The notes beneath the pieces are model-generated. The model was not told where the DNA came from and did not search any database. It saw only the letters and a list, made by a program, of their open reading frames with translations. The position numbers and the translations under genes were made by a program. This document shows positions 4,405 through 33,702 of a stretch of DNA of 64,000 nt, piece by piece. The stretch is from an uncultured Candidatus Saccharibacteria bacterium (GTDB taxonomy: Bacteria; Patescibacteriota; Dojkabacteria; J137), in NCBI GenBank assembly GCA_964437465.1, contig CAYTGI010000005.1:5203-69202 (forward strand). The letters are read 5' to 3'. Each line of letters begins with the position of its first letter. Within the stretch, counting starts at the first letter, position 1.

Positions 4405-5052
4405 CTATTTGACTACAATTCCAACTATGTAAAAAACATCACGATTTCTCTTACTCAAGATTTTCTTTCCCCAAGGTGATTCAATAAGTTCCTTTTCTTC
4501 TTCTGTTAACTTTTTTACTTCAGTAATCTTTATTCCATATTTTAGGATTTCTTTTTTAAAATCACTATTTAAATATTTTTCATTAAGTTCCGGCAGATCT
4601 CTTTCGCTTTTGAACTTCTCTTCATATTTTTCATCATAAGTTGTTACTACTTTTAACATTCCGTTATTTTTTGCAACTATAGCAATATTGCTAATAATAT
4701 TATTATCTAAATTTATAAAACCCTCTAATAAAGATCCCCAAGGAAAGTTTATCTGAACTTCATCGGCAACTGATTCAAGTTCTTTTGGAAGGTTCTCCGC
4801 AACACCATGAATAAAAACTATATTTCTTAAACCACCTTTTGCAAGTTTTCTCCTTGCTTTTCTAGAGACTTCTTCTAGCCCTTTGTAGTTTGCATCAATT
4901 CCAATATAGAAAATTCCAGGGTTATTGTAGGCTTGTTTATAGGTCTGTTTTCCATCGCCACAACCTAAATCAACGATAACTGACTTAAAACTAGGGTCAA
5001 TTTTGAGTTTTTCAACTGGATAGGTTTTCTTGCCTCTAATCTCATTAATCAT
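4405..5052 (-). CDS. NpmA/KamB-like 16S rRNA (adenine1408-N1)-methyltransferase homolog (class I SAM methyltransferase)
   Basis: Motifs VDLGCGDG, FYIGIDAN, KGGLRNIVF, LPKEL..AD, INFPWGSLLEG, VTTYDEKYEE and ITEVKKL align with the remembered NpmA/KamB pattern. Confidence 0.5.
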   Translation of the reverse strand: MINEIRGKKTYPVEKLKIDPSFKSVIVDLGCGDGKQTYKQAYNNPGIFYIGIDANYKGLEEVSRKARRKLAKGGLRNIVFIHGVAENLPKELESVADEVQINFPWGSLLEGFINLDNNIISNIAIVAKNNGMLKVVTTYDEKYEEKFKSERDLPELNEKYLNSDFKKEILKYGIKITEVKKLTEEEKELIESPWGKKILSKRNRDVFYIVGIVVK

Positions 5053-10688: not shown

Positions 10689-11705
10689 ATGGAACAAAAT
10701 CCAAACATGGAACAACAAAATCAACCTCAAATGGAGGATAATTCTCAAAAAAATAAACAGATGCTCACAGTTGGTGCTGGAATTGCAATTTTAGTAGCAG
10801 TTTTCGCTGCAATAATGGTTGCTACAAGTCCAAATGGGGACAACACTAATGATACTCCTAATCCAACTGATGATAACGAAGTAGTTAGAGATAACGATCT
10901 CGATGAAGATGATACTATGGATCCTAGCGATAGTATGCTAATCGAAGACGAAGAACCAATGGCGGGGGCAACTTTTGAACCTATGGCTATGGCTTCATTA
11001 GTTGACGTGACTCCAGAAGGAGGAAATGCTAGCGGTACTGCTTACTACACTGTAGAAAATGGTCAATATATGCTTTATGCAGAATTTATGAACCTGCCAC
11101 CTCTTGAAGATGGATATTTTTATGAAGGATGGGTTGTAAGACAAGATCCTTTTGAATTTATTAGTACAGGTGAGATTTATGAGCTCGCTGGAGTTCAAGT
11201 AAACGAATTTGAATCAAACACTGATTATTCAGACTTTGGAACATATATTCTAACTCTTGAACCTGATGATGGTGACCCTGCTCCTGCTGATCATATCGTT
11301 GAAGGAGCTTTTGAGATGTTGGATTTAGAAAGGGATAACGCACCAGTTCAAGAATCCCCTCCTGCAGCAATGGAATCTCCACCTGCAAACTCAGGACCTG
11401 GAGCATATGCTGAATACAACGAAAGCTTATTAGCAAATGCTAATTCTGGAGATGTTGTTCTTTTCTTTAAAGCTGATTGGTGTCCTTCTTGTAATGTGCT
11501 GGATGCAGATATTACAGCAAACTTAAGTGATATCCCAAATGATGTAACTATCCTAGATGTTGATTACGATGATAATACTGATCTGAGAGAGAAATATAAT
11601 GTAAGAACACAACATACTATGGTACAGGTTGATGCTGAAGGTAATGAGATAAAAACTTGGATAGGAAGCTTTAGTCTAGATGATATTTTATCTGAAATAG
11701 TTTAA
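10689..11705 (+). CDS. Membrane-anchored, acidic, extracytoplasmic thioredoxin-like protein (CxxC)
   Basis: N-terminal TM helix, acidic linker, and a C-terminal VVLFFKADWCPSCN thioredoxin fold. Confidence 0.6.
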   Translation: MEQNPNMEQQNQPQMEDNSQKNKQMLTVGAGIAILVAVFAAIMVATSPNGDNTNDTPNPTDDNEVVRDNDLDEDDTMDPSDSMLIEDEEPMAGATFEPMAMASLVDVTPEGGNASGTAYYTVENGQYMLYAEFMNLPPLEDGYFYEGWVVRQDPFEFISTGEIYELAGVQVNEFESNTDYSDFGTYILTLEPDDGDPAPADHIVEGAFEMLDLERDNAPVQESPPAAMESPPANSGPGAYAEYNESLLANANSGDVVLFFKADWCPSCNVLDADITANLSDIPNDVTILDVDYDDNTDLREKYNVRTQHTMVQVDAEGNEIKTWIGSFSLDDILSEIV

Positions 11706-12439
11706 TGACTTTTATAGTCGTATCTTTTATCGCAGGTGTGCTAACAGTCTTAGCACCCTGCGTTTTTCCTTTATTACCAGTAATTATTGGTAATTCAGTC
11801 AGTGATCAAAATAAGAAAAGGCCTTTTATTATTATTGGTTCTTTAGTTTTCTTTATTATTCTCTTTACAGTCTTAATCAATTTTGGAGAGGGGGTACTCA
11901 GAATTCCAGATTCCACAATAAGAATTATTTCTGGAGGAATATTGATTCTATTTGGACTTACTACTCTATTTCCTAAACAGTGGACAATTTTGTCTTACAA
12001 ATTAGGATTTTCGACTAAAAGTGATAAGCTACTTCACGAATCTTCACAGAAGAAAGGGATAATGGGAGATATACTAACAGGAGCCGCTTTAGGACCTGTT
12101 TTTACAAGCTGTAGTCCAACTTACTTAGTGATTTTAGGATTAGCATTAGGAGAGTCAGATCAATTAAGAGCACTACTTTATCTAACTTCGTACGTTATTG
12201 GGTTAGGATTCATTCTTGTTCTTATTGCTTTAGGAGGTCAAAGGGTTGTAAAAAGATTAAAATGGGCTACAAATCCAGAAAGCACTTTCAAGAAAGTAAT
12301 TGGGGCAGTATTCATTATTGTAGGAATATTCATTATCTTTAGAATAGAAAAAGAAATTGAAGAGTTATTACTTCAGGTTCCTTTTATCGAAAATCTTTAC
12401 TCAATAGAGGCGGATATAGTCAACCAAACACTAGAATAA
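11705..12439 (+). CDS. ccdA: CcdA/DsbD-family thiol:disulfide transmembrane electron transporter
   Basis: VLAPCVFPLLPVIIG motif with ~6 TM helices, adjacent to the thioredoxin-like partner. Confidence 0.75.
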   Translation: MTFIVVSFIAGVLTVLAPCVFPLLPVIIGNSVSDQNKKRPFIIIGSLVFFIILFTVLINFGEGVLRIPDSTIRIISGGILILFGLTTLFPKQWTILSYKLGFSTKSDKLLHESSQKKGIMGDILTGAALGPVFTSCSPTYLVILGLALGESDQLRALLYLTSYVIGLGFILVLIALGGQRVVKRLKWATNPESTFKKVIGAVFIIVGIFIIFRIEKEIEELLLQVPFIENLYSIEADIVNQTLE

Positions 12440-14548: not shown

Positions 14549-15616
14549 ATGGAAATAATAAAGGAAAGTGATGAGAATGTAGTTAAAAAAGTTGTAAAAG
14601 TTCTTAAAAGTGGAGGGCTAGTTGTTTATCCAACTGAAACTGCTTACGGAGTTGGAGTTGATGCTACTAATAAAGATGCTGTTGGTAAACTTCTTGAATA
14701 TAAGAAAAGACCTCAAGGAAAAGCTATTTCCGTTGGAATGAATGATGAAAAAATGGCATCAGAATATGTAGAGATAAATAAGACCGCTAAAAATATCTAT
14801 AAAGAATTTCTTCCAGGACCTGTTACTGTTATCTCAAAATCAAAAGGAAAAGTTGATGCAAGATTAGAATCTGAGAAGGGTACGCTAGGTATAAGAATAC
14901 CTGATAGAAAATCAATACTGGAGATAATAGAAAAATTTAATAAACCAATAACTACTACCTCAGCTAACTCAGCTTCAAAAAAGACACCCTACTCTGTTCA
15001 AGATGTTTTAGATACCTTGAGCCAGAAACAAAAGAAGATGATAGATTTAATTATTGATGGTGGTGAACTTCCCAAAAGATTAACCTCTACTGTCATTGAT
15101 ACAACTACAGATGAATTAAAAACATATAGGCAAGGTCAGGCTAAACTTGGGAATAAAAAAGCGATTGATACCTGTAAATCCAATTCAGAACAAGAAACTA
15201 TTCTTCTTGGAGAAAAATTTATGGGAGAAAATAGGAAATATTTAAAGGAGGGTGCTGTAATTTTCTTATTAAGAGGTGATCTGGGGGCCGGGAAAACCCA
15301 TTTTACTAAGGGAATTGCTAAAGCATTAGGAATTGAGAGGAATATAAAGTCCCCTACGTATACTTATGTTGAAGAATATAATATCCCCTCTTCTAGCAAA
15401 AAGGGAATGTTTTATCATATTGACGCGTGGAAAGTTGAAACTAAAGAAGATTTACAGGCTTTTGGGTTCGAAAACTGGTTGAAGGAGGGAAATGTACTAG
15501 CAATTGAATGGCCTGAGATTTTAGAGAATTTAGGTCAAGAATTTCCAAATGCAAAGATAATAGACTTAGATTTTGAAGTAAATGGTGAGAACAATAGGCT
15601 AATTTCAGAGTATTAG
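14549..15616 (+). CDS. Fused TsaC(YrdC)-TsaE(YjeE) t6A biosynthesis protein
   Basis: N-terminal YrdC (VVYPTETAYGVGVDATN, KRPQGKAISV) and C-terminal TsaE (GDLGAGKTHFTKGIAKALGI...SPTYTYVEEY). Confidence 0.8.
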   Translation: MEIIKESDENVVKKVVKVLKSGGLVVYPTETAYGVGVDATNKDAVGKLLEYKKRPQGKAISVGMNDEKMASEYVEINKTAKNIYKEFLPGPVTVISKSKGKVDARLESEKGTLGIRIPDRKSILEIIEKFNKPITTTSANSASKKTPYSVQDVLDTLSQKQKKMIDLIIDGGELPKRLTSTVIDTTTDELKTYRQGQAKLGNKKAIDTCKSNSEQETILLGEKFMGENRKYLKEGAVIFLLRGDLGAGKTHFTKGIAKALGIERNIKSPTYTYVEEYNIPSSSKKGMFYHIDAWKVETKEDLQAFGFENWLKEGNVLAIEWPEILENLGQEFPNAKIIDLDFEVNGENNRLISEY

Positions 15617-16863
15617 TTTCCAATATATCTTTGTCGTGCTTGTTCAAACTCAGAATTATCTTGACCTTCTACAGAGCTGAATGTGTCAACCTTTTGAACA
15701 TTATTATCCCTTACATCAATTTCATAAACCTTTATCCATTTTTCTGATTCAATCTCTGACTCTGTATAGAAATACTGATAGGTAATTGTACTTTGTCCGA
15801 ATTTAAGTCCTGATTGAGGTGAGATACAAAATGTTTGATCTTTATTTAAGCAATACGAGTTAAAGTTCGCAACAATTTCTTCACTATCAACATGAAAGAT
15901 ATTACAGTCAGCCTCAGTTTCAAACTCAGATTCAGGAATACAATCACCTCGTATTCTAAATCTTCCATCATTACTTATTAAATCAGTATCCATCCTAGCT
16001 TGTTCAATCTCCTCTTCTGAGAGAAGCTTTCCGCTTTCAATTATTTTTTTGGCTAAACTAAAATCAAATCCTGTATTTATCTCAACTTGCATCTCATCAT
16101 CACTTATAACTAGATCAGCCTCAGAATTACATTCGTCTGATTCCTCATAATTTACTGAAACAATAGCATATAAATTCTCTTCAGATAACTTGTAGAAATA
16201 AATGTATGATTTGTTTTCTTCAAAAAATTCAGAAGGAAATTCAGAATCATTCGGGCATTCAGAAGTGATGATACTTTCTTTCTTAACTGGATTAGATAGA
16301 GTTTCCCCATCAAAAGCAATATCAGGAAGCTCTTCGGAAATCTCAGCATCATTCATATTCGAAGTTAATAAACTCAGATTTTCTATATAAGCAAAGGCTA
16401 AGTAACTAAAACCATCATTACCAAGGTCATATTCAAGGATTGTGTCTGAACTGATACTACTTAAAAATGGTGATTGTGTATTATTTAAAGAAGATTGAAG
16501 TACCTGCTTTCCTTCAGGATATTGGAATTCTAGCTTTAGTTCAGCATTGGTGAAAGTGTTTACTAGGTCTATGTCAGATTCTTCAAAAGGAGGAATTTCA
16601 ATAAATTCTTCTACTTCTTCACATAGCTCTTCAGTACATACCACTCCCTCCTCTGTACATTCACATTCATTACATAGATCTTCTGATTGGAACTTATCTC
16701 CAACTGAGTAGTTAAAATCATTATACTCACATACTTGTTGATCTTTTTGTATATCGGTACTTGATCTAAAGAAAACTAAGCCAATTCCAACAAAAGCTAT
16801 TATGAGAGTAATTCCTCCTAAGATGATTACTTCTTTGTTTGGTTTTTCTTTAAAATTTTTCAT
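15613..16863 (-). CDS. Membrane-anchored acidic protein with a VWC-like 6-Cys module
   Basis: TM anchor then CEYNDFNYSVGDKFQSEDLCNECECTEEGVVCTEELC; paralogous to the ORFs at 19285-21254. Confidence 0.5.
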   Translation of the reverse strand: MKNFKEKPNKEVIILGGITLIIAFVGIGLVFFRSSTDIQKDQQVCEYNDFNYSVGDKFQSEDLCNECECTEEGVVCTEELCEEVEEFIEIPPFEESDIDLVNTFTNAELKLEFQYPEGKQVLQSSLNNTQSPFLSSISSDTILEYDLGNDGFSYLAFAYIENLSLLTSNMNDAEISEELPDIAFDGETLSNPVKKESIITSECPNDSEFPSEFFEENKSYIYFYKLSEENLYAIVSVNYEESDECNSEADLVISDDEMQVEINTGFDFSLAKKIIESGKLLSEEEIEQARMDTDLISNDGRFRIRGDCIPESEFETEADCNIFHVDSEEIVANFNSYCLNKDQTFCISPQSGLKFGQSTITYQYFYTESEIESEKWIKVYEIDVRDNNVQKVDTFSSVEGQDNSEFEQARQRYIGN

Positions 16864-16941: not shown

Positions 16942-19194
16942 TTAATCAAATTTAATACTTTGTATTATTTGATCACATTCTGAGTAGTTATTATTGTTAG
17001 AAGAACAAGAAGCTACTAGTAACTTGTTTGAATCGTTTAAGTATCTAAAACTAGATTCAGCACAATCATTTTCCCTTGGAGCAACAATAGCTGGACAGTT
17101 GTTATCTAAGTAAACTTTATCTGTGTAGAAAACTGAATTTGTATCATTAAAGCTTACTCGATATAATTCTCCTACATTATCAATTTCTCCTATTAAAACA
17201 TAATCAGCAACTATATTTGGGTATGCCTCATAAGGAATTCCAATATCTAAAGTACTGTTCTCAGTACTAATTGTAATTCCATCAAGGTAAGTAGAATTTT
17301 CTACCACATTAAATCCGCTTGGAACAGAGAGATTATAATATTTTAACATAGCCCCAAGTGAATCTACAAAATCTTCAGTAGAAATAGTATAGGTTGTGCC
17401 ATAAGAAATTGGCTCGCCACTTAAATATCTCAAACTATTTAAAATCTCAATGACTGCTTCAAGATTTAATTCATCTACTCCTCTAACACTTACAGTACCA
17501 ACATTAACCTCAATTCCTCCAAAAATTCTTCCATTACCTTCACATAAACTAATATCTGAGTATATCTGTTGATTAACGTTGATTGGTTTTTGAGTACCAT
17601 TACATCGTCCGTCATTAGCTCTATTTGTAACAAAAAATGACAGACCATCCCCAGCAAAAGTTAGATTACTTCCTCCTTCATCTCCTGTCCCTTGAGTCTC
17701 ACAAGACCAGTTTTCAGGGATTGAGAATCCAATACCAAGAACAGAATCGTTACAAACTTTGGTAGCCTTTTCAACTTCTCCAATAGCTTCTATACTATTG
17801 AAAAATTCGATAGCCTCTTGATTATCATTTAAGAATGTATCGATCTCAATAACTTTATTTCCATATTGAAATAAATATTTATTAGGGAAGAAATCGGCTA
17901 TTCCAACAATACCTAACTTTGTAACATTTGTACCAAAAAGAGTAATCTCTTCTTGGGCGGTTATTCCATAGTTAGCTATACCTGTTGGTTGCTCAGCATA
18001 AATCCTCTCAAGCTCACTTATTCTATTTTGAACAGCTCCGTTACTATATGTAACTAGTACAAGAGACTCATCTACACAACCAAGTCCACATGGAAACCCA
18101 ACAAATCTTTCAGGAGTATAGAAAATTGTCAATGAATTACCATTCTCAAACTCGTTTTCTTGTATAACAAAGAATTTATTTTCAGTTGTAAATTGATCCT
18201 CCCCAGTTATAAATTCAATACCTTCATAGCTATCTTGTTTTGGTAAATTAAAGCTAATACCGTATTCTTCATAGGTGAATTTTTCAAAGGAAGTATTTAT
18301 TTCATTATCTTCATCCTGTTCTTGAACAATAGGGGTTGGCTCAGGTTCTGGGGCAGGCTGATTGTTATTAACAGCAACAGCACCAATGCCAATTCCAGCA
18401 CTTGCAAGTAAAATAGAACTACCAGCTATAATTTTAGCTGTTGTTGTGGCTAGTAAACCTCCACTAGCAGAGGCTGTAGCAACAGAACTTCCAGAAGAAG
18501 CTCCAATAGCGGCACCTGCAGCAGCACCAGTTAAATTTGTCATATTTGTTAAAGTAACACCTAAAGTAGATCCAACAGCTGAAGCAATAGCAGCCGAGCT
18601 CGAAGCGGTCATTGCATAAGCAGGTTGGACAGAAACACCTAATATTCCAGCTAGAATAATAGGTATAGAAACAGTTTTTAAAGCTAGAGATTTTTCTTCT
18701 CTAGAGACTGACAATTTAAGATCTTCAATCCCTCTATAAAATCTTTTCTTAACAGAATCAACACCCATTTCAACAATTGAAGCTATTTCATTAAAGCTCA
18801 TTTCATCCCAGATTCTCATAATAATAATATCTGAGGTCACTTCATCCATATCTTTTAATTTTTCTTCAATGTATTCAATTGTTAACCCATTCACCACTTC
18901 ATCTTCGAATGAGCTCATGCTCTTCTCAACCTCTTCCTCGAAATTTTCTGTATGAGTAGTATCTTTCGTGCTTTTTTTAGTTTGTTGGTTATAAATCATA
19001 TTTCGACTTACTTTAAAGAGCCAAGCTCTTTTGTTTTCAATAAAATCAAATTCCTCATTTTCAAATAAAGCAATAAACGCTTCAGATGCAATATCTTGAG
19101 CTTCTTCATTATTTCCAAGCCGAAACTTACAAAATCTGAAAATTTCAGGTGAATGCTCTTTATATACTTTTTCGAAAACTTGTTCTTTGTTCAT
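16942..19194 (-). CDS. ECF sigma factor fused through TM / low-complexity segment(s) to a large C-terminal domain
   Basis: Sigma70 region 2 (FRFCKFRLGNNEEAQDIASEAF) and region 4 (IIIMRIWDEMSFNEIASIVEMGVDSVKKRF), then a hydrophobic, Ala/Gly/Ser-rich segment and a ~480-aa domain. Confidence 0.7.
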   Translation of the reverse strand: MNKEQVFEKVYKEHSPEIFRFCKFRLGNNEEAQDIASEAFIALFENEEFDFIENKRAWLFKVSRNMIYNQQTKKSTKDTTHTENFEEEVEKSMSSFEDEVVNGLTIEYIEEKLKDMDEVTSDIIIMRIWDEMSFNEIASIVEMGVDSVKKRFYRGIEDLKLSVSREEKSLALKTVSIPIILAGILGVSVQPAYAMTASSSAAIASAVGSTLGVTLTNMTNLTGAAAGAAIGASSGSSVATASASGGLLATTTAKIIAGSSILLASAGIGIGAVAVNNNQPAPEPEPTPIVQEQDEDNEINTSFEKFTYEEYGISFNLPKQDSYEGIEFITGEDQFTTENKFFVIQENEFENGNSLTIFYTPERFVGFPCGLGCVDESLVLVTYSNGAVQNRISELERIYAEQPTGIANYGITAQEEITLFGTNVTKLGIVGIADFFPNKYLFQYGNKVIEIDTFLNDNQEAIEFFNSIEAIGEVEKATKVCNDSVLGIGFSIPENWSCETQGTGDEGGSNLTFAGDGLSFFVTNRANDGRCNGTQKPINVNQQIYSDISLCEGNGRIFGGIEVNVGTVSVRGVDELNLEAVIEILNSLRYLSGEPISYGTTYTISTEDFVDSLGAMLKYYNLSVPSGFNVVENSTYLDGITISTENSTLDIGIPYEAYPNIVADYVLIGEIDNVGELYRVSFNDTNSVFYTDKVYLDNNCPAIVAPRENDCAESSFRYLNDSNKLLVASCSSNNNNYSECDQIIQSIKFD

Positions 19195-19284
19195 TTATCT
19201 ATAAGTCAAAATAAAATAAAAAAAGTGACAAAAATATAAAAAAGGCCATCAATAAAGATAGCCTTAAATATTTGTAAAATTTTA

Positions 19285-19596
19285 CTATCTTCTACTTCTT
19301 TCCTGTCTTTCTAGTGAATCAATAATTCCTTGTACTGCACCGTCATCGATAACTTGATCGCACATTAATTCTGTACACAAAACTTCTCCATTAGCACAAA
19401 CACACTGGTTACATGAATCACCTGCAGGGAAATTATTTCCAGTTTTATACATTGCTCCATTATATTGACATGTATTATTACCCCTTTCTAAAAAGCCTTC
19501 ACTATCAATAACCATAAATCCTAGAGCAAGAGCTAATATAACCGCAAAAGTTGTAATTACAGCCATAATTAGCATTGGCGAACTTGGTTTTTTCAT
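19285..19596 (-). CDS. Small membrane-anchored VWC-like cysteine-module protein
   Basis: CQYNGAMYKTGNNFPAGDSCNQCVCANGEVLCTELMC. Confidence 0.5.
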   Translation of the reverse strand: MKKPSSPMLIMAVITTFAVILALALGFMVIDSEGFLERGNNTCQYNGAMYKTGNNFPAGDSCNQCVCANGEVLCTELMCDQVIDDGAVQGIIDSLERQERSRR

Positions 19597-19614
19597 TTAG
19601 TTAAGAATAATAAA

Positions 19615-20400
19615 TTAAAATGTCATTCTAGAGATAATTTCGTCAGCCTCATTCATATTAATTTCGCTATCTGCTGACCCTGAAATCTCAATATATCCTC
19701 TATCAACTCCTCCCTCAGTTAAATATCCAAGTTCGGAAAGTATTAAGCTTGTCTCTAGGCAGCCATCAGAAGCTTGAGCTGAGTTCTCATTAACAGACAG
19801 ATATTGATAATCAGGATTGTCGCTTGTAAGTATTCTGGATATATCATCAGTAATATCTGCTCTACTTTCAATCTCACAGCTAAATCCAAAAACACTTGAA
19901 GGAGCTGAAGGTATTACAGCATTCATTGTTAATTCTGTATCTTTTTCTATGTGGCTCAGAACGTGTAATTCTTCATTATCGCTAAGATCAGAAGTTAATT
20001 CCCATATACAATTATTGTATGAAAAAGTAAACTCTGGGAGTATAGTGCTTTCATATTGAATGTCATTACACTCTGTTTCATCATCAAAAAATTCACTAGT
20101 TTCGTTAGGTGGCAAGGTATTTTCATCATTATCTACTAAGTAAGAGTCATTTCCTTCTGCTTTACAATCTATTTCGGTACAAGCAACATCACCATCAGAA
20201 CAAGTACACGTATTGCATCCATCCCCTGCATTAAAACTTTCACTCGAATCGTACATTACACCATTATATTGGCATGAAGAAATAGGATTTGGTTTTAAGG
20301 CATCTTGGCTTTGTAGAATGTAGTAACCTAAAACAAGACTAATAATTACAAAGAATCCAGCGATAAGAGAGACAATTGTTAGTTGTGTTTGTTTATTCAT
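19615..20400 (-). CDS. Membrane-anchored VWC-like module + acidic domain protein
   Basis: CQYNGVMYDSSESFNAGDGCNTCTCSDGDVACTEIDC. Confidence 0.5.
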   Translation of the reverse strand: MNKQTQLTIVSLIAGFFVIISLVLGYYILQSQDALKPNPISSCQYNGVMYDSSESFNAGDGCNTCTCSDGDVACTEIDCKAEGNDSYLVDNDENTLPPNETSEFFDDETECNDIQYESTILPEFTFSYNNCIWELTSDLSDNEELHVLSHIEKDTELTMNAVIPSAPSSVFGFSCEIESRADITDDISRILTSDNPDYQYLSVNENSAQASDGCLETSLILSELGYLTEGGVDRGYIEISGSADSEINMNEADEIISRMTF

Positions 20401-20402
20401 AA

Positions 20403-21254
20403 TTAAATTTTTGTGATAGTATTTAAAATTCCGAATTGTTTTAGAATATCATCAGTTTGAAGTTGTTGTTCAATAGCTTCTTCAAGAGAGGCAGCATCAG
20501 GTATGTTACCGAAGCAATCGTTATATCCTCCATCAATTCTGATAATTGCTACAATATCTTCATAAAGAGGATAATGGTATAAATTAGTTATAAAATTCCT
20601 ATACCCTTGATTAGGGTCCTCAAAGTCACATGGAACTCCTTCTCTGTTAGATCCTTTTATTGGAATTATTTCTTGATTATCAACTTCTACTATGGGTAAT
20701 TCCTCAGTTATGTCAGTTATCTTATATGCTCTTGTAAAAACATCTTCTTCAGTAAAAATATCCTCAGTTATTGAAATTTCTAAGCTGTACTTTACGTAAG
20801 TATCTCCATCTTCAGTCAGGTCAGTTTTAATCAGCCTTAGGAAATCCTCCTTCGGTTCTCCTTCAATCTCAAAGTCATCAGGATAAAAAAAACTAAAGCC
20901 TAATTCCTCCGATTCAAAGTAATTATTAAAAGTAAAAATGCTGCTTCCAATTGTGATTTCTTTTTCTTCTATAACCCCATTATGTTCCACTAAATAGCTG
21001 TCATTTTCTTCACTTTTACAATCAATCTCAGTACATATAACCTCACCATCTGCACAAACGCATTGATTACATCCATCCGCAGCGTTGAAACTCTCACTAG
21101 ACTCGTAAGTAACTCCATTATACTGACATGACGTAGGTCCATTATTTGTCTGCATGTCTTGCTCAATAACATTAAACCCAGCAAAAAGGGCTACACCGAT
21201 TGCAATTGTAACTATTACAACTACTGCGATTGTTGGTTTATCATATTTTGACAT
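20403..21254 (-). CDS. Membrane-anchored VWC-like module + acidic domain protein
   Basis: CQYNGVTYESSESFNAADGCNQCVCADGEVICTEIDC. Confidence 0.5.
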   Translation of the reverse strand: MSKYDKPTIAVVVIVTIAIGVALFAGFNVIEQDMQTNNGPTSCQYNGVTYESSESFNAADGCNQCVCADGEVICTEIDCKSEENDSYLVEHNGVIEEKEITIGSSIFTFNNYFESEELGFSFFYPDDFEIEGEPKEDFLRLIKTDLTEDGDTYVKYSLEISITEDIFTEEDVFTRAYKITDITEELPIVEVDNQEIIPIKGSNREGVPCDFEDPNQGYRNFITNLYHYPLYEDIVAIIRIDGGYNDCFGNIPDAASLEEAIEQQLQTDDILKQFGILNTITKI

Positions 21255-28029: not shown

Positions 28030-28308
28030 TCAATAAACATAATCATGGCCTCCAATAGTAAGAAGAAGCACAATATCATCACCGTCAAAGTCCCAAATTA
28101 TTCTAATATCTCCATTAATCCTTGAACTATAGACTTTTCCATAATTGGGTAAGTTCACTTTGTGTGTCTTTAAAGAATTATCGAACGGGTTTCTACTTAA
28201 TTTTTCAACTTTTGAATTTATTAGACTAAAAAGATATCAATTATTCCTGATGAGCTTTAGATATTCTCTCTTGTATTTTGAAGTTGGTAGTATTTTAATC
28301 CTCCTCAT
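28030..28308 (-). pseudogene. RelE/ParE-family toxin with an in-frame TGA (codon 24; + coordinates 28237-28239)
   Basis: MRRIKILPTSKYKREYLKLIRNN*YLFSLINSKVEKLSRNPFDNSLKTHKVNLPNYGKVYSSRINGDIRIIWDFDGDDIVLLLTIGGHDYVY. The ATG overlaps the upstream antitoxin stop (ATGAGGAGGATTAA). Confidence 0.55.
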
Positions 28309-28609
28309 TGTCTACTTCCTCTAACATTTTTTCGTGAAATTCACGAATGTCTTGGGGAGTAGTTAGTGTCTCGTATTGTCCATTTTCGTAGTCTTCCCTA
28401 GCTTCTTTTACATCTTTTTCAAGCTTAGGGGTTCCGTACTCTACTGGAAGGTTTTTGGGGATTTTTATCCTGGAATATTCACGGTCTCTTTTAAGAGTAG
28501 ATAGAGCTAATTTAACGATCTCAGCTCGATCTAAACCTTCATAATGCTTTTCTAAAAAAGCGATTACTGGTTCTAGTTCTTTTGTTATTGTTACTCTAAT
28601 TGAACTCAT
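28295..28609 (-). CDS. RHH-type antitoxin (RelB/ParD-like)
   Basis: IRVTITKELEPVIAFLEKHYEGLDRAEIVKLALSTL looks like a ribbon-helix-helix, and the ORF overlaps the toxin start. Confidence 0.5.
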   Translation of the reverse strand: MSSIRVTITKELEPVIAFLEKHYEGLDRAEIVKLALSTLKRDREYSRIKIPKNLPVEYGTPKLEKDVKEAREDYENGQYETLTTPQDIREFHEKMLEEVDNEED

Positions 28610-28738
28610 GGTTAATTATGGCACTAAGTGGTGGTAAATGTCAAATATTGTTAAATTATGTATGTTTCGGTACAAATAGTGTTATTTTGCAAATATCTAA
28701 ATACTAAATCAGAAATTCTAAACAAATAAATAATAATT

Positions 28739-28782
28739 AAAAGACAAAAGACAAAAGACAAAAGACAAAGATAAAAGACAGA
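28739..28782. repeat. (AAAGAC)n hexamer tandem repeat, ~7 units
   Basis: aaagacaaaagacaaaagacaaaagacaaagataaaagacaga. Confidence 0.8.
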
Positions 28783-28857
28783 TAATTAAGGTAATTAAGT
28801 ATGAAATTCTCAGATATTAATAATTTGCACTGAAAGCATGGGGAATTATAATTTATT

Positions 28858-28897
28858 GGTACATTGGTACATTGGTACATTGGTACATTGGTACTTA
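28858..28897. repeat. (GGTACATT)x5 octamer tandem repeat
   Basis: Five near-perfect copies that abut the stop of ORF 28895-29155. Confidence 0.9.
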
Positions 28898-29155
28898 TTT
28901 ATAAATTTCCTCTAATTTCCCAATATTTAGAAAAATTATGTAGTTTTCTTTAATTCTAAAGAGAACAACAATTTCTTTGTAAATTACTACCTGGTAGAGG
29001 TCGAGTTTAAGGTAGGTAAACTCTGAAAGATCTATTTTTCCTTTTTTATCCGTAATTTCTTTTAGAAAATTATTGAATTGAGATTTAACTGATTTTTCCT
29101 CACTGACAGTTGTTTTGTAGTTTTTTACGAACAGGTAGCCGAAAACAATTTCCAC
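28895..29155 (-). CDS. RelE/ParE-like toxin candidate
   Basis: C-terminal YQVVIYKEIVVLFRIKENYIIFLNIGKLEEIYK resembles the RelE beta-sheet region; 3 nt downstream of the RHH antitoxin. Confidence 0.4.
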   Translation of the reverse strand: MEIVFGYLFVKNYKTTVSEEKSVKSQFNNFLKEITDKKGKIDLSEFTYLKLDLYQVVIYKEIVVLFRIKENYIIFLNIGKLEEIYK

Positions 29156-29158
29156 AGG

Positions 29159-29446
29159 TTATACAGATTTAAGGTACTCTATCGCGTCTTTACTGTTACT
29201 AAATAAAGGAATATCTCCATCTTTAACTTTTTTATAAGCTTCCTCGGAGTTTAAATAGTATTTCATAGCAGCTTCTTCACTAATCTCATTATTAAAACCA
29301 AAGCTTGTTTTCTTATTCTTGTAATTAGCGATAAAAACACGAACTAACTCTTGAAGGGAAGAGAATCCCTCCTCCTGAGCGAGTTTTTCAGCCTCATCTC
29401 TAAGGTTTTTCGGAAGTCGAACTTGAAGATTTACACCTACTGCCAT
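29159..29446 (-). CDS. RHH (CopG-like) antitoxin
   Basis: VNLQVRLPKNLRDEAEKLAQEEGFSSLQELVRVFI. Confidence 0.55.
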   Translation of the reverse strand: MAVGVNLQVRLPKNLRDEAEKLAQEEGFSSLQELVRVFIANYKNKKTSFGFNNEISEEAAMKYYLNSEEAYKKVKDGDIPLFSNSKDAIEYLKSV

Positions 29447-29632
29447 GAATGTAATTTAATATTTATATTACAATTGTAACAGTTTGGTAATAAAAGATAA
29501 AGTATTCATGTATATATGTATACACGTAGACATGTAAACACGTATGCGCGTATGAAAAGATTTTGACTTAAAAATACTAAAGAAACATTATTAGTTGGTG
29601 AGTTGGTACTTAGGTAGGAGAATATGAGTTCT

Positions 29633-29912
29633 TTAATTATTATACACCTGGTTATGAGTACCAACTGCAAGAAAAATGTAACTATCTTTTGTTTCTTTAA
29701 ATATAATTCGTAAGTCAGAATTAATGAAGCCTATGGACTCAAGTCCAAGCATGTTACCATGCAGCTTGTGGCGATAAATTGCTATATGAAAAGGATCATC
29801 TTCAAAAAATTCGTAATAAGTTAAGAAACTCATTTTTAAAAGTTTGATTAAAGCGGATTCTATTCTTATAGTTCTTTCTGAATGTTTTACTAAAGACGAT
29901 CTTTTTAGTCAT
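29633..29912 (-). pseudogene. YafQ/RelE-family toxin interrupted by a frameshift in an A6/T6 run (+ coordinates 29804-29809)
   Basis: N-terminus MTKKIVFSKTFRKNYKNRIRFNQTFKNEFLNLLRIF in one frame and C-terminus EDDPFHIAIYRHKLHGNMLGLESIGFINSDLRIIFKETKDSYIFLAVGTHNQVYNN in another. Reading T5 gives a full 91-aa toxin. The ATG overlaps the antitoxin stop. Confidence 0.5.
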
Positions 29913-30198
29913 AATCCTCACTAGTTAAGTCATTTAGAGCATCTGACATGCTGTTGAATGACGGGGACTTTTTCTTTGGGTTATTCTCTTCTACAAGGCT
30001 CTTTAGGGCCAACTTCAGAGTCTTTTTATTCAAAGAAAATTGTGAGGTCTGTCGAATTAATATATTTCCTTTAGCGTATTGTGTAGCAAGGAATGTGTTT
30101 AGCGAAGCTAATGTAGGAAACCCATCCTCAAGGGCTTTTTCCTTAAGGGTCTTCTCAAGCTCTTCTTCTAATCTATAGGTAATAACTTTTTTACTCAT
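29905..30198 (-). CDS. RHH-like antitoxin (probable start at internal Met, MSKKVITYRLEE...)
   Basis: GFPTLASLNTFLATQY resembles the neighbouring RHH antitoxin; the ORF extends to 30294 from an upstream Met. Confidence 0.45.
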   Translation of the reverse strand: MSKKVITYRLEEELEKTLKEKALEDGFPTLASLNTFLATQYAKGNILIRQTSQFSLNKKTLKLALKSLVEENNPKKKSPSFNSMSDALNDLTSEDYD

Positions 30199-30313
30199 AT
30201 CAACAAAATAATAGCATTTTATAGATATTTTGTCATTAAATGCTCGTTGAAGCCTAAGTATGAAAATACTTAGAAAATGGTTGATATGAAACACGAAAGA
30301 AGCATAATTCTTT

Positions 30314-30369
30314 GGTACGTTGGTACGTTGGTACGTTGGTACGTTGGTACGTTGGTACGTTGGTACATG
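30314..30369. repeat. (GGTACGTT)x6 + GGTACATG octamer tandem repeat
   Basis: Perfect tandem copies between TA modules. Confidence 0.9.
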
Positions 30370-30390
30370 AATACACCTCTACTAGTTAAA

Positions 30391-30789
30391 CTAAATTATT
30401 GCTTTGTCGTAATTCTTAAGAATCTTTTTGTCTGCAGTAGCTAATTTTGAATTACTTAATAACGCTTCTGAAGTAATAATTCGATCAAATGGGTCTCGTG
30501 TCCAAGAAATTGTTTTCACAATTTTGATTAGGTCGCTAAGCTTTGAATCCCTTACTTCAAGTCCAAGTTCAATTTCAAGTGTATGAATTATGTCTTCAGG
30601 TTTGACTGTTATCTTTTTTAAATCAAAAAGATATTGAAGCTCTAATTCTATGAAACTGCTTATGAAGAGTGGGTGTTTGTTTAATTAATTCTTGCACTTT
30701 AGAGAGAATCTGCTTACCTCACCAGCATACAAAAATATTACAGCGTTAGTATCTAGGTAAACTAGTTCAGATTTTCTTTTTCTTTCCAT
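30391..30789 (-). pseudogene. VapC-like PIN-domain toxin with an in-frame TAA (+ coordinates 30685-30687)
   Basis: MERKRKSELVYLDTNAVIFLYAGEVSRFSLKCKN*LNKHPLF...ISWTRDPFDRIITSEALLSNSKLATADKKIL, i.e. the PIN D-T-N and C-terminal acidic motifs. Confidence 0.55.
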
Positions 30790-31016
30790 TCTGAATCTAT
30801 ATCAAAAGTTTTAATCTTGGGGATGTCTTTAAAGCTCGTATTCTGACCTAAAATATTTCTTTTCTTAAGATTATTGAGCTTATCTGTAGGTTTATTCTTG
30901 GAAATTATAACAGTCTCGCCGTTTTTTTCTATTTCTACAGGTATTCCTGTTTCGATAACACTATCTATTACCTTATAAATCTTTTTTCTTAATTCTGTAG
31001 TAGTTAAAGTTTTCAT
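30762..31016 (-). CDS. Phd/YefM-like antitoxin
   Basis: TTELRKKIYKVIDSVIETGIPVEIEKNGETVIIS; the toxin start overlaps its 3' end. Confidence 0.5.
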   Translation of the reverse strand: MKTLTTTELRKKIYKVIDSVIETGIPVEIEKNGETVIISKNKPTDKLNNLKKRNILGQNTSFKDIPKIKTFDIDSEWKEKENLN

Positions 31017-31266
31017 ATTAATAGTTTAGCGTACTCTTTTATTGTTTACAAGCGTACGTTTTTGTGCACAGTAAAATTGCATGTAACTAGTGGCTAGTTT
31101 TGTTCCCAATTTCTGGAGAAAATCTAAAGAAAATTAGTGGAAGTTTTTAAGTTAAGTATCTTGTTGTTTGGTTTGGTGGCGAATTGCCTTTCTATATAAC
31201 AGTTTCCAAGTCTACCCCACCCTTGCCCTCCCCTGCTAGGGGAGGAGAAGGTACTGTTCCCAAAAC

Positions 31267-31296
31267 TTGTCAACTTAGTGTTTGAGGTGATATAAT
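31267..31296 (+). promoter_or_regulatory. Strong sigma70-like promoter (TTGTCA-N18-TATAAT) in a 450-bp non-coding stretch
   Basis: Consensus hexamers. Just upstream lies a GC hairpin, ctcccctgctaggggag. Confidence 0.4.
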
Positions 31297-31847
31297 TACT
31301 ATGTCTTCGAAATGTAATTTATTACTTTCAAGACTTTGAAAATAAAAATACTCTATTAAAAGTCTAAGTACTTTATAGATATATGATTCCTATAAGACTT
31401 TTTGTTTTTTAGGATGAACCCTACTACGCCAAGGCTTCGTAGGGAGATCATTAACAACTGAGATGTAATACTTTAAAAACTATAAATGATTATTCATTTT
31501 AGTTGTTAAAGTTTTGCGAAAAATTTTCTTTTGGAAGGAATAGTTATTTTACCCCTTTTTACGGTAAGTTTTGGGCTTAATGAGTTCAGAATTTACCGTA
31601 AAAATAAAAGGGTAATGTAGCTTCCACCCTTCCCAGGAGAATAAAAAAGGGAAAAAGGAAAGATTAAGCCTATGCTTAATCAAAAATCCGGTATCCGCTA
31701 CAGGATATGCAGTCCGGCTGGGACTATCTTCCAATAGATAAAGGAAGAAAGTCAAAGTACTTGCGCTAGTTTAGGCAAGGAACAAACCAGGCAAGACAGA
31801 GTCATATTCGAATCGAAAGCACATCAAACGAGGTATACAGAAACATC

Positions 31848-33098: not shown

Positions 33099-33124
33099 AA
33101 GTCTCGCCCCTGGCCATTGACGGA

Positions 33125-33157
33125 CCTAAAGCGCTTACATAGGCTTTAGGTTTTTTC
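33125..33157 (+). terminator. Rho-independent terminator
   Basis: cctaaagc-gcttacatag-gctttagg followed by T6. Confidence 0.6.
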
Positions 33158-33339
33158 GAGAGAAGGGTCGGCTTATACAGCGATTCTTCTTTCCCATTCT
33201 TTAGGAATCCTATTTAGGATATCTAAAGAAAAATCTTTACCCCCTTTCTTTTGAAAAAAAGAAATTAGCTTCGCAGCATCTCAGTTTGTTACACCGTCCG
33301 AGTACTGAAGTACCAAAGTACCTATGTACTTAAGTACCT

Positions 33340-33702
33340 TTATACCTTCGTACTATAAAATGTCTTTAATTTCCTCAGCATATGAATAACCTCCTTCGTT
33401 TTCTTATCTATTTCTTCGTAATTTTCGCTTGTCAAGTATTGTAGATCTTTACTTAATTTTAGAAAATACCCTAGCTCATAAGCTGACGCTAGAGATATAC
33501 TTAAAAATCTTATAAATTCCTTCCTACTATCTCTACTACTCCCCTCTACAATATTTGAGGGAATAGAATAGCTTGCCCTTCGCATTTGACTAACTAATCC
33601 GTACTGTTCTGTTTTAGGAAATGATTTAGTAGAAGTGTAAATATTAATTGTAAGGTTATGTGAATATTCCCACACCTTTAGCTTAGTATAATCGTGCATC
33701 AT
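33340..33702 (-). CDS. Four-helix-bundle protein (23S rRNA IVS / Avd-like family)
   Basis: LKVWEYSHNLTINIY...FPKTEQYGLVSQMRRASYSIPSNIVEGSSR matches the family signature. Confidence 0.65.
   Translation of the reverse strand: MMHDYTKLKVWEYSHNLTINIYTSTKSFPKTEQYGLVSQMRRASYSIPSNIVEGSSRDSRKEFIRFLSISLASAYELGYFLKLSKDLQYLTSENYEEIDKKTKEVIHMLRKLKTFYSTKV

Follow-up and report, generated by a model that had tools for sequence, protein, structure and literature searches.

The window, a 64-kb stretch of DNA, contains on its minus strand an uninterrupted open reading frame (ORF) for a protein of 750 amino acids (Table 1), which was confirmed as a genuine gene; its host is an uncultured bacterium of the Dojkabacteria (CPR). 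An identical protein, P0001, occurs in a public collection. The polypeptide begins with an ECF sigma domain (residues 1–165), which is followed by a tether of about 10 residues, a membrane module (residues 174–277), a stalk and three further modules (residues 301–750).

Table 1. Features of the sigma fusion gene and its surroundings (positions in the window; KD, Kyte-Doolittle hydropathy).
Feature	Positions	Strand	Evidence or remark
Fusion gene (ECF sigma, membrane module, ectodomain), 750 aa	16942..19194	-	Uninterrupted ORF
Sigma region 2, residues 1–75	18970..19194	-	Pfam PF04542 (Sigma70_r2), 38.2 bits, cutoff 24
Variable sigma2–sigma4 linker, residues 76–103 (28 residues)	18886..18969	-	32% mean identity
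Sigma region 4, residues 104–162	18709..18885	-	PF08281, TIGR02937, SigW alignment
Short basic tether, residues 163–173, SVSREEKSLALK	18676..18708	-	32 K/R before TM1 (8 proteins)
TM1 (16-residue hydrophobic core), then P-A/T-Y-A, residues 174–194	18613..18675	-	75% mean identity, 9/21 invariant
TMx, small-residue-rich, weakly hydrophobic helix, residues 195–216	18547..18612	-	KD ~1.2
Variable Gly/Ala/Ser/Thr loop, predicted cytoplasmic, residues 217–245	18460..18546	-	Indel length variation
G-x-L-A-x-T-x-x-K lead-in and TM2, residues 246–277	18364..18459	-	KD 1.97, 64% identity
Acidic, Pro-rich stalk, residues 278–300	18295..18363	-	1 K/R in first 15 residues after TM2 (8 proteins)
Ecto-module A, residues 301–475, Cys369/Cys373	17770..18294	-	Common to P0002 (57%) and P0006 (35%) only
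Ecto-module B, residues 476–568, 4 Cys	17491..17769	-	Start C..GI.F.IPE.W.C like B' of P0002 and P0004
Ecto-module C, residues 569–750, 4 Cys	16945..17490	-	61% identity to P0003 C-terminus
ECF-type promoter-like motif, TGTCAC-N16-TGAC-TTA	19202..19230	-	Ends 7 nt before ATG
Intrinsic-terminator-like hairpin	19242..19265	-	Between upstream VWC-gene cluster and sigma gene
Three upstream genes (103, 261, 283 aa)	19285..21254	-	Pfam VWC, 30.5–31.2 bits, cutoff 27.6
Downstream gene, 416 aa, TM and Cys-knot type as upstream three	15613..16863	-	78-nt gap to sigma gene

The three upstream genes code for proteins with an N-terminal membrane anchor, a VWC/pacifastin-like cysteine knot and a variable ectodomain. 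On visual inspection, the DNA upstream in loci L001 and L003 also showed hairpin-like inverted repeats followed by T runs, comparable to the one which separates these genes from the sigma gene. On the other side, the 416-aa gene is possibly co-transcribed with the sigma fusion; no terminator was found in the gap between the two. Genes for CsoR, thioredoxin and TrxR are situated near the fusion, and no gene for a site-2 protease (S2P) or a signal peptidase occurs within the window. An rRNA operon or a DGR had been suspected at 32–34 kb from the higher GC content and a 23S_rRNA_IVP/bAvd-like gene, but Rfam gave no match in the region, and neither a tRNA nor direct repeats of ≥40 bp were found there.

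A bipartite motif, TGTC(A/C)(C/G)-N16-(T/C)G(T/A)C-TTA, with a spacing of exactly 16 nt, stands upstream of six of seven family genes, a variant precedes the seventh, and the motif is also present before the gene of a sister sigma factor, P0007. Each locus has one match, always directly upstream (chance expectation in the window, 0.78), and a search of six family loci (~126 kb) gave no match beyond that of the family gene in each. No Shine-Dalgarno sequence was found between the motif and the ATG of the fusion gene. Autoregulated ECF sigma factors typically have a bipartite promoter, with an AAC-like −35 element, a spacer of ~16–17 nt and a CGT-like −10 element. The conserved motif is promoter-like, and it may represent the promoter of the sigma fusion gene.

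Occurrence of the fusion in a small family

The same fusion was found in all eight genes of the family, which come from at least six assemblies; those with names are labelled Dojkabacteria, and Saccharibacteria in one record. The gene order Sua5/TsaE, sigma fusion, VWC genes, MFS, CsoR, Trx and TrxR is kept across the family, and a single MAG carries three paralogues of the fusion. The original prediction had allowed for a frameshift or assembly artefact at about 18.65–18.75 kb, by which two separate genes would have been fused. Apart from the odd architecture and the low-complexity stretch, nothing speaks for such a joining of a sigma gene to a downstream membrane-protein gene. The sigma4/TM1 junction is unbroken in all eight genes, where it is the best-conserved part of the protein and is flanked on both sides by invariant residues; P0002 (NCBI and ENA) and P0003 (NCBI and Logan) were each recovered twice by independent re-assembly; and the paralogues in one MAG, together with the failure to find an unfused version, argue in the same direction. 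Among the 202 ORFs of the family loci there was also no unfused precursor starting with the signal-like segment AGILG...PAYA. An artefact may be considered as effectively refuted already.

An exhaustive HMMER search with the C-terminal 466 aa against 1.84 × 10^9 representative proteins gave three matches, all of them family members, so that within this set the outer modules are confined to the family, and a scan of 241 million JGI metagenome records with the membrane-module alignment gave none. A word-indexed search with residues 1–288, which was dominated by low-complexity words, yielded two matches only.

Sigma domain, membrane module and topology

Sigma70 regions 2 and 4 had been recognised within the first ~170 aa, and their presence was borne out by matches above the cutoffs to Sigma70_r2 and to TIGR02937 (sigma70-ECF; 63.7 bits, cutoff 42.9), the latter spanning residues 7–160, and by alignment of the family profile with Bacillus subtilis SigW (5wuq; SigW 20–182, E 5e-16), which extends to query residue ~161, where sigma4 ends. 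The match to PF08281 (Sigma70_r4_2) was marginal, at 24.9 bits slightly below the cutoff of 25.7, and a match to Sigma70_r3, i.e., a sigma3 region, was absent with Pfam. In a profile search of the PDB, the sigma domain alone was matched. Region 2 has 20 of its 75 columns invariant across the eight homologues, and the core-binding and HTH motifs are conserved. With sigma2, sigma4, a short linker and neither sigma3 nor sigma1.1, residues 1–165 are a genuine ECF (group 4) sigma domain, which would appear to be functional and cytoplasmic. All NCBIfam subfamily and equivalog models remained below their cutoffs (best TIGR02985, 73.7 versus 126.4). Among 5.8 × 10^9 proteins, the nearest sigma factor outside the family was P0007, with 38% identity, and the remainder reached ≤33%.

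Sigma4 ends at about residue 162, and the last charge before TM1 is Lys173. The gap of only about 10 residues between sigma4 and TM1 is too short for an anti-sigma domain; Pfam and NCBIfam gave no match to ZAS, FecR-N or DUF4179 at E ≤ 1, and residues 166–254 contain neither Cys nor His, hence no ZAS motif H-x3-C-x2-C. The designation as a sigma/anti-sigma-like polypeptide was therefore not retained. Compared with the sigma/anti-sigma fusions IutY and ECF48/52/53, the protein has the transmembrane helix and, judged from its sequence, the extracytoplasmic C-terminus, and it lacks the anti-sigma domain.

TM1 is the most conserved segment of the protein; together with P-A/T-Y-A its mean identity in the eight proteins exceeds that of sigma2 and sigma4 (55%). 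Invariant are P178, A182, G183, I184, L185 and G186, and the downstream P-A/T-Y-A as well. The n/h/c arrangement of TM1 resembles a signal peptide, and the 16-residue core is followed in all eight proteins by P(−4), A/T(−3), Y(−2) and A(−1), a candidate signal-peptidase site. TMx, which lies inside the Ala/Ser/Thr/Gly stretch and is uncharged in seven of the eight proteins, is a candidate for a second membrane pass or an interfacial helix. The Kyte-Doolittle profile, with strong segments at residues 170–192 and 255–277 (~1.95) and a weaker one at ~197–215 (1.2), agrees with the earlier description of a hydrophobic helix followed by an Ala/Gly/Ser-rich stretch with a possible second helix. The clearest membrane helix is TM2: it had the best insertion score in every member and is the sole unambiguous transmembrane helix by hydropathy and by insertion score. 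A Hessa-type sum, in which residues were not weighted by position, amounted to −1 to 1.5 for TM2 versus 3.6–7.8 for TM1 and TMx, which are only marginally hydrophobic on this scale and may not span the membrane.

Summed over the eight proteins, the 15 residues preceding TM1 contain 32 K/R, the turn none, the inner loop (from TMx up to the invariant Lys254 just before TM2) 10, and the segment after TM2 one. The first 30 residues past TM2 include 4–10 D/E in each protein, and the number of Cys downstream of TM2 is even in all eight. Because of this positive-inside distribution of K/R, the even Cys numbers, the homology of a P0003 module to the ectodomain of neighbouring proteins and the extracytoplasmic thioredoxin/CcdA pair nearby, the Cys-containing C-terminal region is most likely extracytoplasmic, as had been proposed. 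A simple topology of one or two helices had been assumed; an odd number of passes is required, which means three helices or one.

Exchange of probable extracytoplasmic modules

The C-terminal part contains 10 Cys, grouped 2+4+4. It had been regarded as a single domain of ~480 aa; while its Cys content was confirmed, it consists of a stalk and three separable modules, since different homologues share different pieces. Across the family, two or three Cys-paired modules follow the stalk. The likeness of module B to the B' module of P0002 and P0004 is confined to its start. For module C, similar Cys-patterned C-termini were seen by eye in P0006, in L007b and in a neighbour ORF of L008. A comparison of P0002 with L008 gave 90–95% identity for the sigma domain, 12–30% for the first ecto-module and 55–88% for the last; orthologues as close as these have exchanged outer modules. 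For the middle module of P0003, homologues were found in the ectodomains of type-II-anchored VWC proteins (E 4e-22 and 3e-9), one of them n283, the product of the upstream 283-aa gene (E 3e-9).

Module A of P0001 and P0002 and the middle module of P0003 gave matches to PsbP_2 (PF18933) of 14.8–22.4 bits, under the gathering threshold of 27 bits, which each cover model positions ~40–178 of 184; this likeness is a lead only. When module A was compared by hhalign with the P0003/n283 module, the probability was 0.8%, and a common origin of the two was not supported. AlphaFold2 models of the full-length protein (4-sequence alignment, pLDDT 34) and of module A (5-sequence alignment, pLDDT 38) were unusable.

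Possible mode of action and comparison with known systems

Regulated proteolysis and membrane-bound transcription, the two mechanisms considered at the outset, are both sensible for such a fusion. The reading which we prefer, with a probability of about one half, is that of a one-component, membrane-integrated ECF sigma factor of a small lineage of Dojkabacteria (CPR/Patescibacteria), which is silenced by tethering, freed by proteolysis and autoregulated. The C-terminal modules would lie outside the cytoplasm and serve there for sensing or binding. The membrane module would form a three-helix bundle, in which TM1 passes from inside to outside, a tight outer turn is made at Q-P-A-Y-A, the small-residue helix TMx returns inward and TM2 passes outward again, and the sigma domain would be inactive merely by being pinned to the membrane, with no need for an anti-sigma domain. 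A signal at the ectodomain could alter the packing of the bundle and thereby expose the A-x-A site of the signal-peptidase type, which follows the short TM1 with its Pro and Gly residues; a cut at this site, followed by a site-2-protease cut of the remnant signal-peptide-like helix, would set the sigma domain free. It should then transcribe from TGTCAC-N16-CGTC promoters, including its own (positive autoregulation). For the single steps, precedents exist: in RsiV and RsiP the gated site-1 cut is made by signal peptidase (PMC6066255, PMC8844934), remnant signal peptides are removed by RseP (PMC8144685), the S2P SpoIVFB cleaves a sigma precursor directly (PMC7593790), and Prc and RseP activate IutY, which is itself a fusion (PMC8999054). 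The proteolytic model is weakened by the lack of an S2P or signal-peptidase gene in the window and by the marginal hydrophobicity of TM1 and TMx on the Hessa-type scale, and the model as a whole by the lack of a second copy of the motif in the ~126 kb of family loci. A further objection is that the usual substrates of signal peptidase are N-terminal signal peptides, whereas the one proposed here would follow a domain of 170 aa.

Membrane-tethered ECF sigma factors with large extracytoplasmic domains had been called rare; such fusions are indeed uncommon, but have already been described with IutY, ECF48/52/53 and ECF263 (PMC8999054, PMC7826278, PMC5826349). The sigma/anti-sigma hybrid IutY (ECF243) from Pseudomonas putida is likewise one polypeptide, which starts with an ECF sigma, crosses the membrane and ends in an extracytoplasmic region; it is active only once this C-terminal part has been removed (PMC8999054, PMC7593790). 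However, IutY has a FecR-type anti-sigma domain between sigma and its single TM, a TonB-dependent receptor as partner and a diderm host, whereas the Dojkabacteria fusion has no anti-sigma domain, a three-segment membrane module, orphan ectodomains and a CPR host. In ECF52 (SCO4117), ECF48 and ECF53, sigma is followed by one or more TM helices, a proline-rich stalk and an extracytoplasmic binding module, and positive autoregulation with proteolytic release was proposed (PMC5826349, PMC8999054); they occur in Actinobacteria only and are defined by an anti-sigma domain of the zinc-finger (ZAS) type together with a carbohydrate-binding module, neither of which is present here. In RsiV/sigmaV and RsiP/sigmaP of Firmicutes, a membrane helix is followed at once by a signal-peptidase-type site, which short helices right after it could mask, and S2P acts next (PMC6066255, PMC8844934); P-A/T-Y-A behind TM1 is a candidate for a comparable site. 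In those systems the protein that is cut is an anti-sigma factor, distinct from the sigma, with DUF4179 and a lysozyme- or beta-lactam-sensing domain, while the putative site of the fusion lies within the polypeptide of the sigma factor itself and DUF4179 was not detected (E ≤ 1). Pro-sigmaK of B. subtilis, a membrane-associated inactive sigma factor freed by the S2P-family protease SpoIVFB (PMC7593790), offers a parallel to the mode of action proposed here, but belongs to group 3, with an N-terminal prosequence of ~20 residues and no ectodomain. ECF263 has a C-terminal membrane extension (PMC7826278) with more helices (5 or 7), and a large ectodomain was not reported for it. P0007, the sister sigma of 292 aa from Dojkabacteria, shares the membrane extension and the upstream motif, but has a charged cytoplasmic spacer of ~65 aa, one TM and an external tail of only ~30 aa.

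Other explanations start from the same data. TM2, by far the best insertion candidate on the Hessa-type sum, might span the membrane alone, and the hairpin of TM1, QPAYA and TMx (residues 170–250) would then be a non-canonical anti-sigma element on the cytoplasmic side, peripherally inserted or docked on sigma2/sigma4, with classical regulated intramembrane proteolysis (RIP) at TM2 as for IutY. The ~85 aa from sigma4 to TM2 correspond to the typical length of an anti-sigma domain, P0007 with its sigma, ~65 soluble residues and one TM offers a parallel, the very high conservation of residues 174–194 would suit a protein-protein interface, and the K/R census is equally compatible with one or three passes. 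Yet the ~80 residues before the invariant Lys which precedes TM2 are without acidic residues in seven of eight members and, except for an extra loop Lys in L007a and L007b, without basic residues in seven of eight, a composition which is unlike any soluble anti-sigma domain; anti-sigma matches in Pfam/NCBIfam and the Cys/His of ZAS are missing, and the n/h/c layout with A-x-A is left unexplained. We regard such a cryptic anti-sigma element as unlikely, though the strongest competitor. An arrangement of TM1 and TM2 as a two-helix hairpin, with the Ala/Ser-rich stretch as the only external loop, would place the Cys-containing modules inside the cell as regulatory domains, for example for metal or redox, where they would act as an anti-sigma part C-terminal to the helices. 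The two clearly hydrophobic segments, the CxxxC pair in module A and the nearness of the CsoR, thioredoxin and TrxR genes would fit, and anti-sigma domains after TM helices were proposed for ECF241 partners (PMC7826278). This arrangement is very improbable nevertheless: 11 K/R would face outside versus 1 under the other topologies, TM2 is followed by an acidic, Pro-rich stalk, one module of the family has homologues among the ectodomains behind the disulfide-knot VWC domain of type-II-anchored neighbours, the Cys number is even in all eight proteins, and a sigma-binding domain would not tolerate that modules are exchanged for non-homologous ones between orthologues.

The question of release can be asked separately. 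Some one-component regulators are membrane-bound, and the cells of CPR bacteria are very small. The sigma factor might never be released and act while tethered, as do ToxR, CadC or TcpP, with the ectodomain modulating access of sigma4 and RNA polymerase via the helix bundle; this would be workable as ultra-small cells keep the nucleoid always near the membrane. A neighbourhood without an anti-sigma domain or protease gene would be in accordance, and the strong conservation of the bundle and its small-xxx-small motifs would fit signalling through a change of conformation. With a tether of ~10 residues, however, a clash of the sigma4 (beta-flap, −35) and sigma2 (beta' coiled-coil) contacts with the membrane seems likely, and the characterised fused or membrane-associated sigma factors, i.e., IutY, pro-sigmaK and the ECF52 model, are all activated by cleavage (PMC8999054, PMC7593790, PMC5826349). 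Permanent tethering thus appears improbable, slightly behind the cryptic anti-sigma element and far ahead of the two-helix hairpin.

As the family is very small (8 genes), the general importance of the fusion is limited unless related designs appear elsewhere. It is a rare one-protein coupling of cell surface to gene expression, with no recognisable anti-sigma part. If it works as preferred here, i.e., by proteolytic release, it would provide a minimal route from the surface to RNA polymerase without a separate anti-sigma factor, and activation of the signal-peptidase/S2P type would be extended from anti-sigma factors to sigma itself. Synthetic biology would gain a compact part in an ECF switch which spans the membrane, is encoded by a single gene, needs no anti-sigma factor and has a defined promoter motif.

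CPR/Patescibacteria possess tiny genomes and few recognisable signal-transduction systems. A more speculative possibility, to which we give less credence than to proteolytic release but more than to any of the alternatives above, is that of an anti-sigma-free device, in which the signal-anchor of the sigma factor itself is the regulated substrate of signal peptidase and then S2P, or sigma is active while membrane-bound in ultra-small cells, with cassette-like exchange of orphan modules, for the sensing of contact or hosts by CPR episymbionts. If so, the exchange would involve disulfide-bonded surface modules shared with the neighbouring VWC-type surface proteins, and a rapidly diversifying system would wire surface recognition straight to RNA polymerase. 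The exchange of modules among orthologues which are otherwise nearly identical, and the presence of related modules in surface proteins encoded next to the fusion, point to fast-evolving recognition, as would be expected at a host-symbiont interface.

Sigma fusion gene and its relatives

The window DNA is chromosomal and of low GC content (~33%), with genes for rpoB, rpoC, S12, S7, IF-2, FtsW and TyrRS, among others; no tRNA genes or Rfam families were detected at threshold across positions 1–64000. The sigma fusion gene is a single unbroken open reading frame of 750 amino acids, of which residues 1–165 represent an ECF sigma factor (TIGR02937, 63.7 bits versus a cutoff of 42.9; Pfam Sigma70_r2, 38.2 bits, above cutoff; Sigma70_r4_2, 24.9 bits, slightly below the cutoff of 25.7). 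Sigma region 3 was not found with Pfam or NCBIfam. A profile of the fusion family could be aligned with B. subtilis SigW (PDB 5wuq) as far as SigW residue 182/187, and therefore sigma4 of the window protein ends at about residues 161–165. By sequence comparison the sigma domain of the family is remote from all other sigma factors: the nearest one, P0007, is a sister sigma outside the fusion family with 38% identity, all others reached at most 33%, and every NCBIfam subfamily model scored below its cutoff. P0007, a 292-aa protein of Dojkabacteria (locus L031, 4961–5879), consists of a sigma domain, ~65 charged residues, a single TM helix and a short tail.

The original prediction of an ECF sigma factor, followed by hydrophobic segments, an Ala/Gly/Ser-rich stretch and a Cys-containing C-terminal region, was right in all these features, and the fusion is real. 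A frameshift or assembly error joining two genes at ~18.65–18.75 kb had been considered as its refutation. A protein identical to that of the window is present in the public collection (P0001); protein searches yielded the relatives P0002, P0003, P0004 and P0006, and a scan of GTDB species genomes three further fusion genes, all in MAG HKST-UBA13 (two in tandem on locus L007, one on locus L008). Sigma domain, tether, TM1-QPAYA, loop, TM2 and stalk share one frame in all eight genes, and the suspected junction codes for the best-conserved part of the protein. P0002 and P0003 are each known from two independent assemblies, and synteny is kept (Sua5/TsaE, sigma fusion, VWC-type genes, MFS, CsoR-like, thioredoxin, thioredoxin reductase); an artefact is thus excluded. 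Named records of family members are labelled Candidatus Dojkabacteria, except for the genome of P0003, which is titled uncultured Candidatus Saccharibacteria. An 85-aa open reading frame (18362–18619, plus strand), antisense to the Ala/Gly/Ser-rich stretch, is a by-product of biased composition and no gene.

Other window genes were as follows. At 10689–12439 (plus strand), a 338-aa protein that combines a single TM helix with RskA_C-like and thioredoxin (WCPSC) domains precedes a CcdA/DsbD_TM protein; the two resemble a thiol-redox pair of the extracytoplasmic side, and related loci have them in the same arrangement. Just 3' of the rpoB-rpoC-S12-S7 cluster, proteins of 739 and 1567 aa (46122–48341 and 48421–53124, plus strand) each contain, close to the C-terminus, a Peptidase_S74 domain (endosialidase intramolecular chaperone), which suggests self-cleaving, fibre-like surface proteins. 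A strong match (187 bits) to NpmA-type 16S rRNA (adenine1408-N1) methyltransferase, an aminoglycoside-resistance-type enzyme, is located at 4405–5052 (minus strand), with a homologue at the edge of the related locus L001. At 59296–62670 (minus strand), a 1124-aa class I aminoacyl-tRNA synthetase carries a borderline Ser_hydrolase-like insert (residues 670–813; 22.3 bits, cutoff 22). Toxin-antitoxin-like small genes occur at 28200–34400 (PemK/MazF-like, 33769–34104; AbrB/MazE-like, 34083–34340; 23S_rRNA_IVP/bAvd-like four-helix protein, 33340–33702); direct repeats of at least 40 bp were absent from this region, and a DGR is therefore not indicated. A secreted 416-aa orphan (31848–33098; GC 0.43 versus ~0.33) may have been acquired horizontally.

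Membrane segments and topology

Features of the sigma fusion gene and protein. Positions are residues of the window protein or, where a strand is given, window coordinates; identity is the mean pairwise identity across the eight fusion proteins.
Feature	Position	Identity	Remarks
Terminator-like hairpin	19265..19242		between three upstream VWC-type genes and the sigma gene
Promoter-like motif	19230..19202, minus		TGTCAC-N16-TGAC-TTA; directly upstream of the start codon
Sigma fusion gene	16942..19194, minus
Sigma2		55%
Sigma2-sigma4 linker		32%
Sigma4		55%
Basic tether		62%	SVSREEKSLALK; between sigma domain and TM1
TM1, hydrophobic	174–189	75% (TM1+QPAYA)	QPAYA next; 9/21 columns of TM1+QPAYA invariant
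TMx, weakly hydrophobic helix	~197–215	52%	within uncharged Ala/Ser/Thr/Gly stretch
Loop between TMx and TM2		36%
TM2, strongly hydrophobic	255–277	64%
Stalk		32%	after TM2; acidic, Pro-rich
Outer modules		20–32%	alignable parts
C-terminal ~450 residues	after stalk		10 Cys, pattern 2+4+4

TM1 thus exceeds in conservation the domains that bind DNA and core, which would not be expected for a mere anchor. Its invariant residues (P178, A182, G183, I184, L185, G186, P191, Y193, A194) stand in a signal-peptide layout, with a basic n-region, a 16-residue h-region and a c-region in which Pro occupies -4, Ala or Thr -3, and Ala -1.

The label "sigma/anti-sigma-like" could not be upheld. Only ~10 residues separate sigma4 from TM1; residues 166–254 of the window protein contain neither Cys nor His, and therefore a ZAS motif is impossible there; and anti-sigma families gave no match at E ≤ 1 in Pfam or NCBIfam. 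From TM1 to TM2, seven of the eight members lack acidic residues, and their basic residues there are limited to an invariant Lys just before TM2 and one more loop Lys in the L007 pair (L007a and L007b). The upstream and downstream neighbour proteins have cytoplasmic N-termini of just ~8–12 residues and therefore cannot provide an anti-sigma domain.

Four lines of evidence suggest that the C-terminal modules are extracytoplasmic, as had been implied. Totals of Lys and Arg across the eight proteins are 32 in the tether, 0 in the turn after TM1, 1 in TMx, 10 in the loop before TM2 (with the invariant Lys directly N-terminal to TM2) and 1 in the 15 residues after TM2. The 30 residues after TM2 contain 4–10 Asp/Glu and 2–5 Pro per protein. 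Cys numbers after TM2 (10, 6, 6, 4, 6, 2, 8, 6) are even in all eight proteins, and module by module too. In proteins encoded nearby (L001 6172–7377, E 4e-22; window proteins of 283 and 416 aa, E 3e-9 and 0.02), the region behind the N-terminal anchor and the VWC-like Cys knot is homologous to the P0003 middle module. A hairpin of two helices that leaves the C-terminal region in the cytoplasm would place 11 Lys/Arg outside, versus 1 for C-terminus-out topologies; all four lines disfavour it.

With the sigma domain inside and the C-terminus outside, the number of membrane passes must be odd. TM2 is the sole unambiguous helix (simple sums of Hessa-type values: TM2 -1 to +1.5, TM1 +3.6 to +5.8, TMx +3.8 to +7.8). 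Either TM1 and TMx both span, giving a bundle of three helices that makes a tight turn outside at QPAYA, or neither does, leaving a single pass with a hairpin at the cytoplasmic face. The bundle is favoured; small-xxx-small motifs occur in all three segments, and a Tyr/Pro turn suits an interface. Two AlphaFold runs were uninformative (pLDDT 34 and 38).

Exchange of outer modules

The large Cys-containing region is present as predicted; it proved to be modular and shuffled between orthologues. The window protein has its module A (residues 301–475) in common with P0002 and P0006, and module C (569–750) with P0003; P0002, P0004 and the L008 protein have another terminal module in common, of which the window protein retains just the start. 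The orthologues P0002 and L008 show a mosaic of identities: 90–95% in the sigma domain, 72–85% in the membrane module, 12–30% (random level) in the first outer module and again 55–88% in the last. Module-C-like sequence was also found at the end of a non-sigma neighbour on L008. The HKST-UBA13 paralogues (L007, 374–3960; L008, 842–2590) each have a different set of outer modules, and L007b, one of the tandem pair, carries two module-C-like units.

In an exhaustive HMMER search of 1.84 billion representative proteins, residues 285–750 matched family members only, and no relatives were found when JGI metagenomes were scanned with the membrane module. The P0003 middle module, as well as module A in two proteins, gave PsbP_2 matches that were full-length and sub-threshold (14.8–22.4 bits, cutoff 27); this hint of a PsbP/Mog1-like fold may serve as a lead only.

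Four paralogous window genes (19285–21254 and 15613–16863, minus strand) encode an N-terminal membrane anchor and a VWC/pacifastin-like Cys knot (C-x-Y-N-G...C-N-x-C-x-C...C-T-E-x-x-C), three of them above the Pfam VWC gathering score (30.5–31.2 versus 27.6). Their C-terminal ectodomains are variable, with modules in common with the sigma fusions. The VWC/pacifastin-like domain type is best known in extracellular proteins of animals.

Promoter-like motif and possible control of sigma

Hairpins comparable to that upstream of the sigma gene were seen by eye in loci L001 and L003. Since no Shine-Dalgarno sequence precedes the start codon, a leaderless or near-leaderless mRNA is suggested. The bipartite motif stands before six of the seven family genes for which upstream DNA was available, with a spacing of exactly 16 nt and divergent spacer sequence; the seventh has the variant TGTGAC-N16-AGTC-TTA, and P0007, in a different genomic context, TGTCAC-N16-CGTC-TTA. 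Beyond the sites upstream of family genes, no copies, and hence no other regulon members, were found in six loci (~126 kb, both strands). The spacing is inconsistent with a sigma-70 -35/-10 pair. In form the motif resembles B. subtilis sigmaW/X/M promoters (TGxAAC-N16/17-CGTx); it can be read as a putative cognate, positively autoregulated promoter.

The architecture, its conservation, the lack of an anti-sigma domain, the exchange of modules and the conserved promoter-like motif were observed, whereas the following mechanism of sigma control is inferred. Sigma4 and sigma2, tethered no more than ~10 residues from the bilayer, would be kept off core RNAP and DNA. A signal at the ectodomain would change the bundle and could thereby turn the A-x-A site behind TM1, a short helix with Pro and Gly, into a signal-peptidase substrate; S2P would then clear the remnant signal-peptide-like helix and release sigma. 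Precedents exist for every step. As a gated site-1 protease, signal peptidase acts on RsiV, where short helices just after the site mask it (PMC6066255), and on RsiP (PMC8844934). Signal peptides are eliminated by RseP (PMC8144685), and a sigma precursor is a direct substrate of the S2P SpoIVFB (PMC7593790). Activation of IutY, also a fusion, is by Prc and RseP (PMC8999054, PMC7593790). Rivals to this model are a single-pass protein, in which the conserved hairpin would be a cryptic anti-sigma element and cleavage would occur at TM2, and a sigma factor active while membrane-bound.

Fusion of ECF sigma factors to membrane and extracytoplasmic extensions is an established arrangement, namely in IutY, ECF48/52/53 (ZAS domain, one or two TM helices, Pro-rich stalk, carbohydrate-binding module) and ECF263 (five or seven TM helices) (PMC8999054, PMC5826349, PMC7826278). 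The window family is alike in outline, but lacks their defining feature, a recognisable anti-sigma domain, and differs also by its conserved signal-peptide-like first helix, its cassette-type ectodomains and its host, a CPR lineage; a literature search on ECF sigmas in CPR gave nothing relevant. The interest of the family is moderate, and lies in an ECF sigma without anti-sigma domain, with an unusually conserved signal-peptide-like helix and swapped orphan sensor modules.
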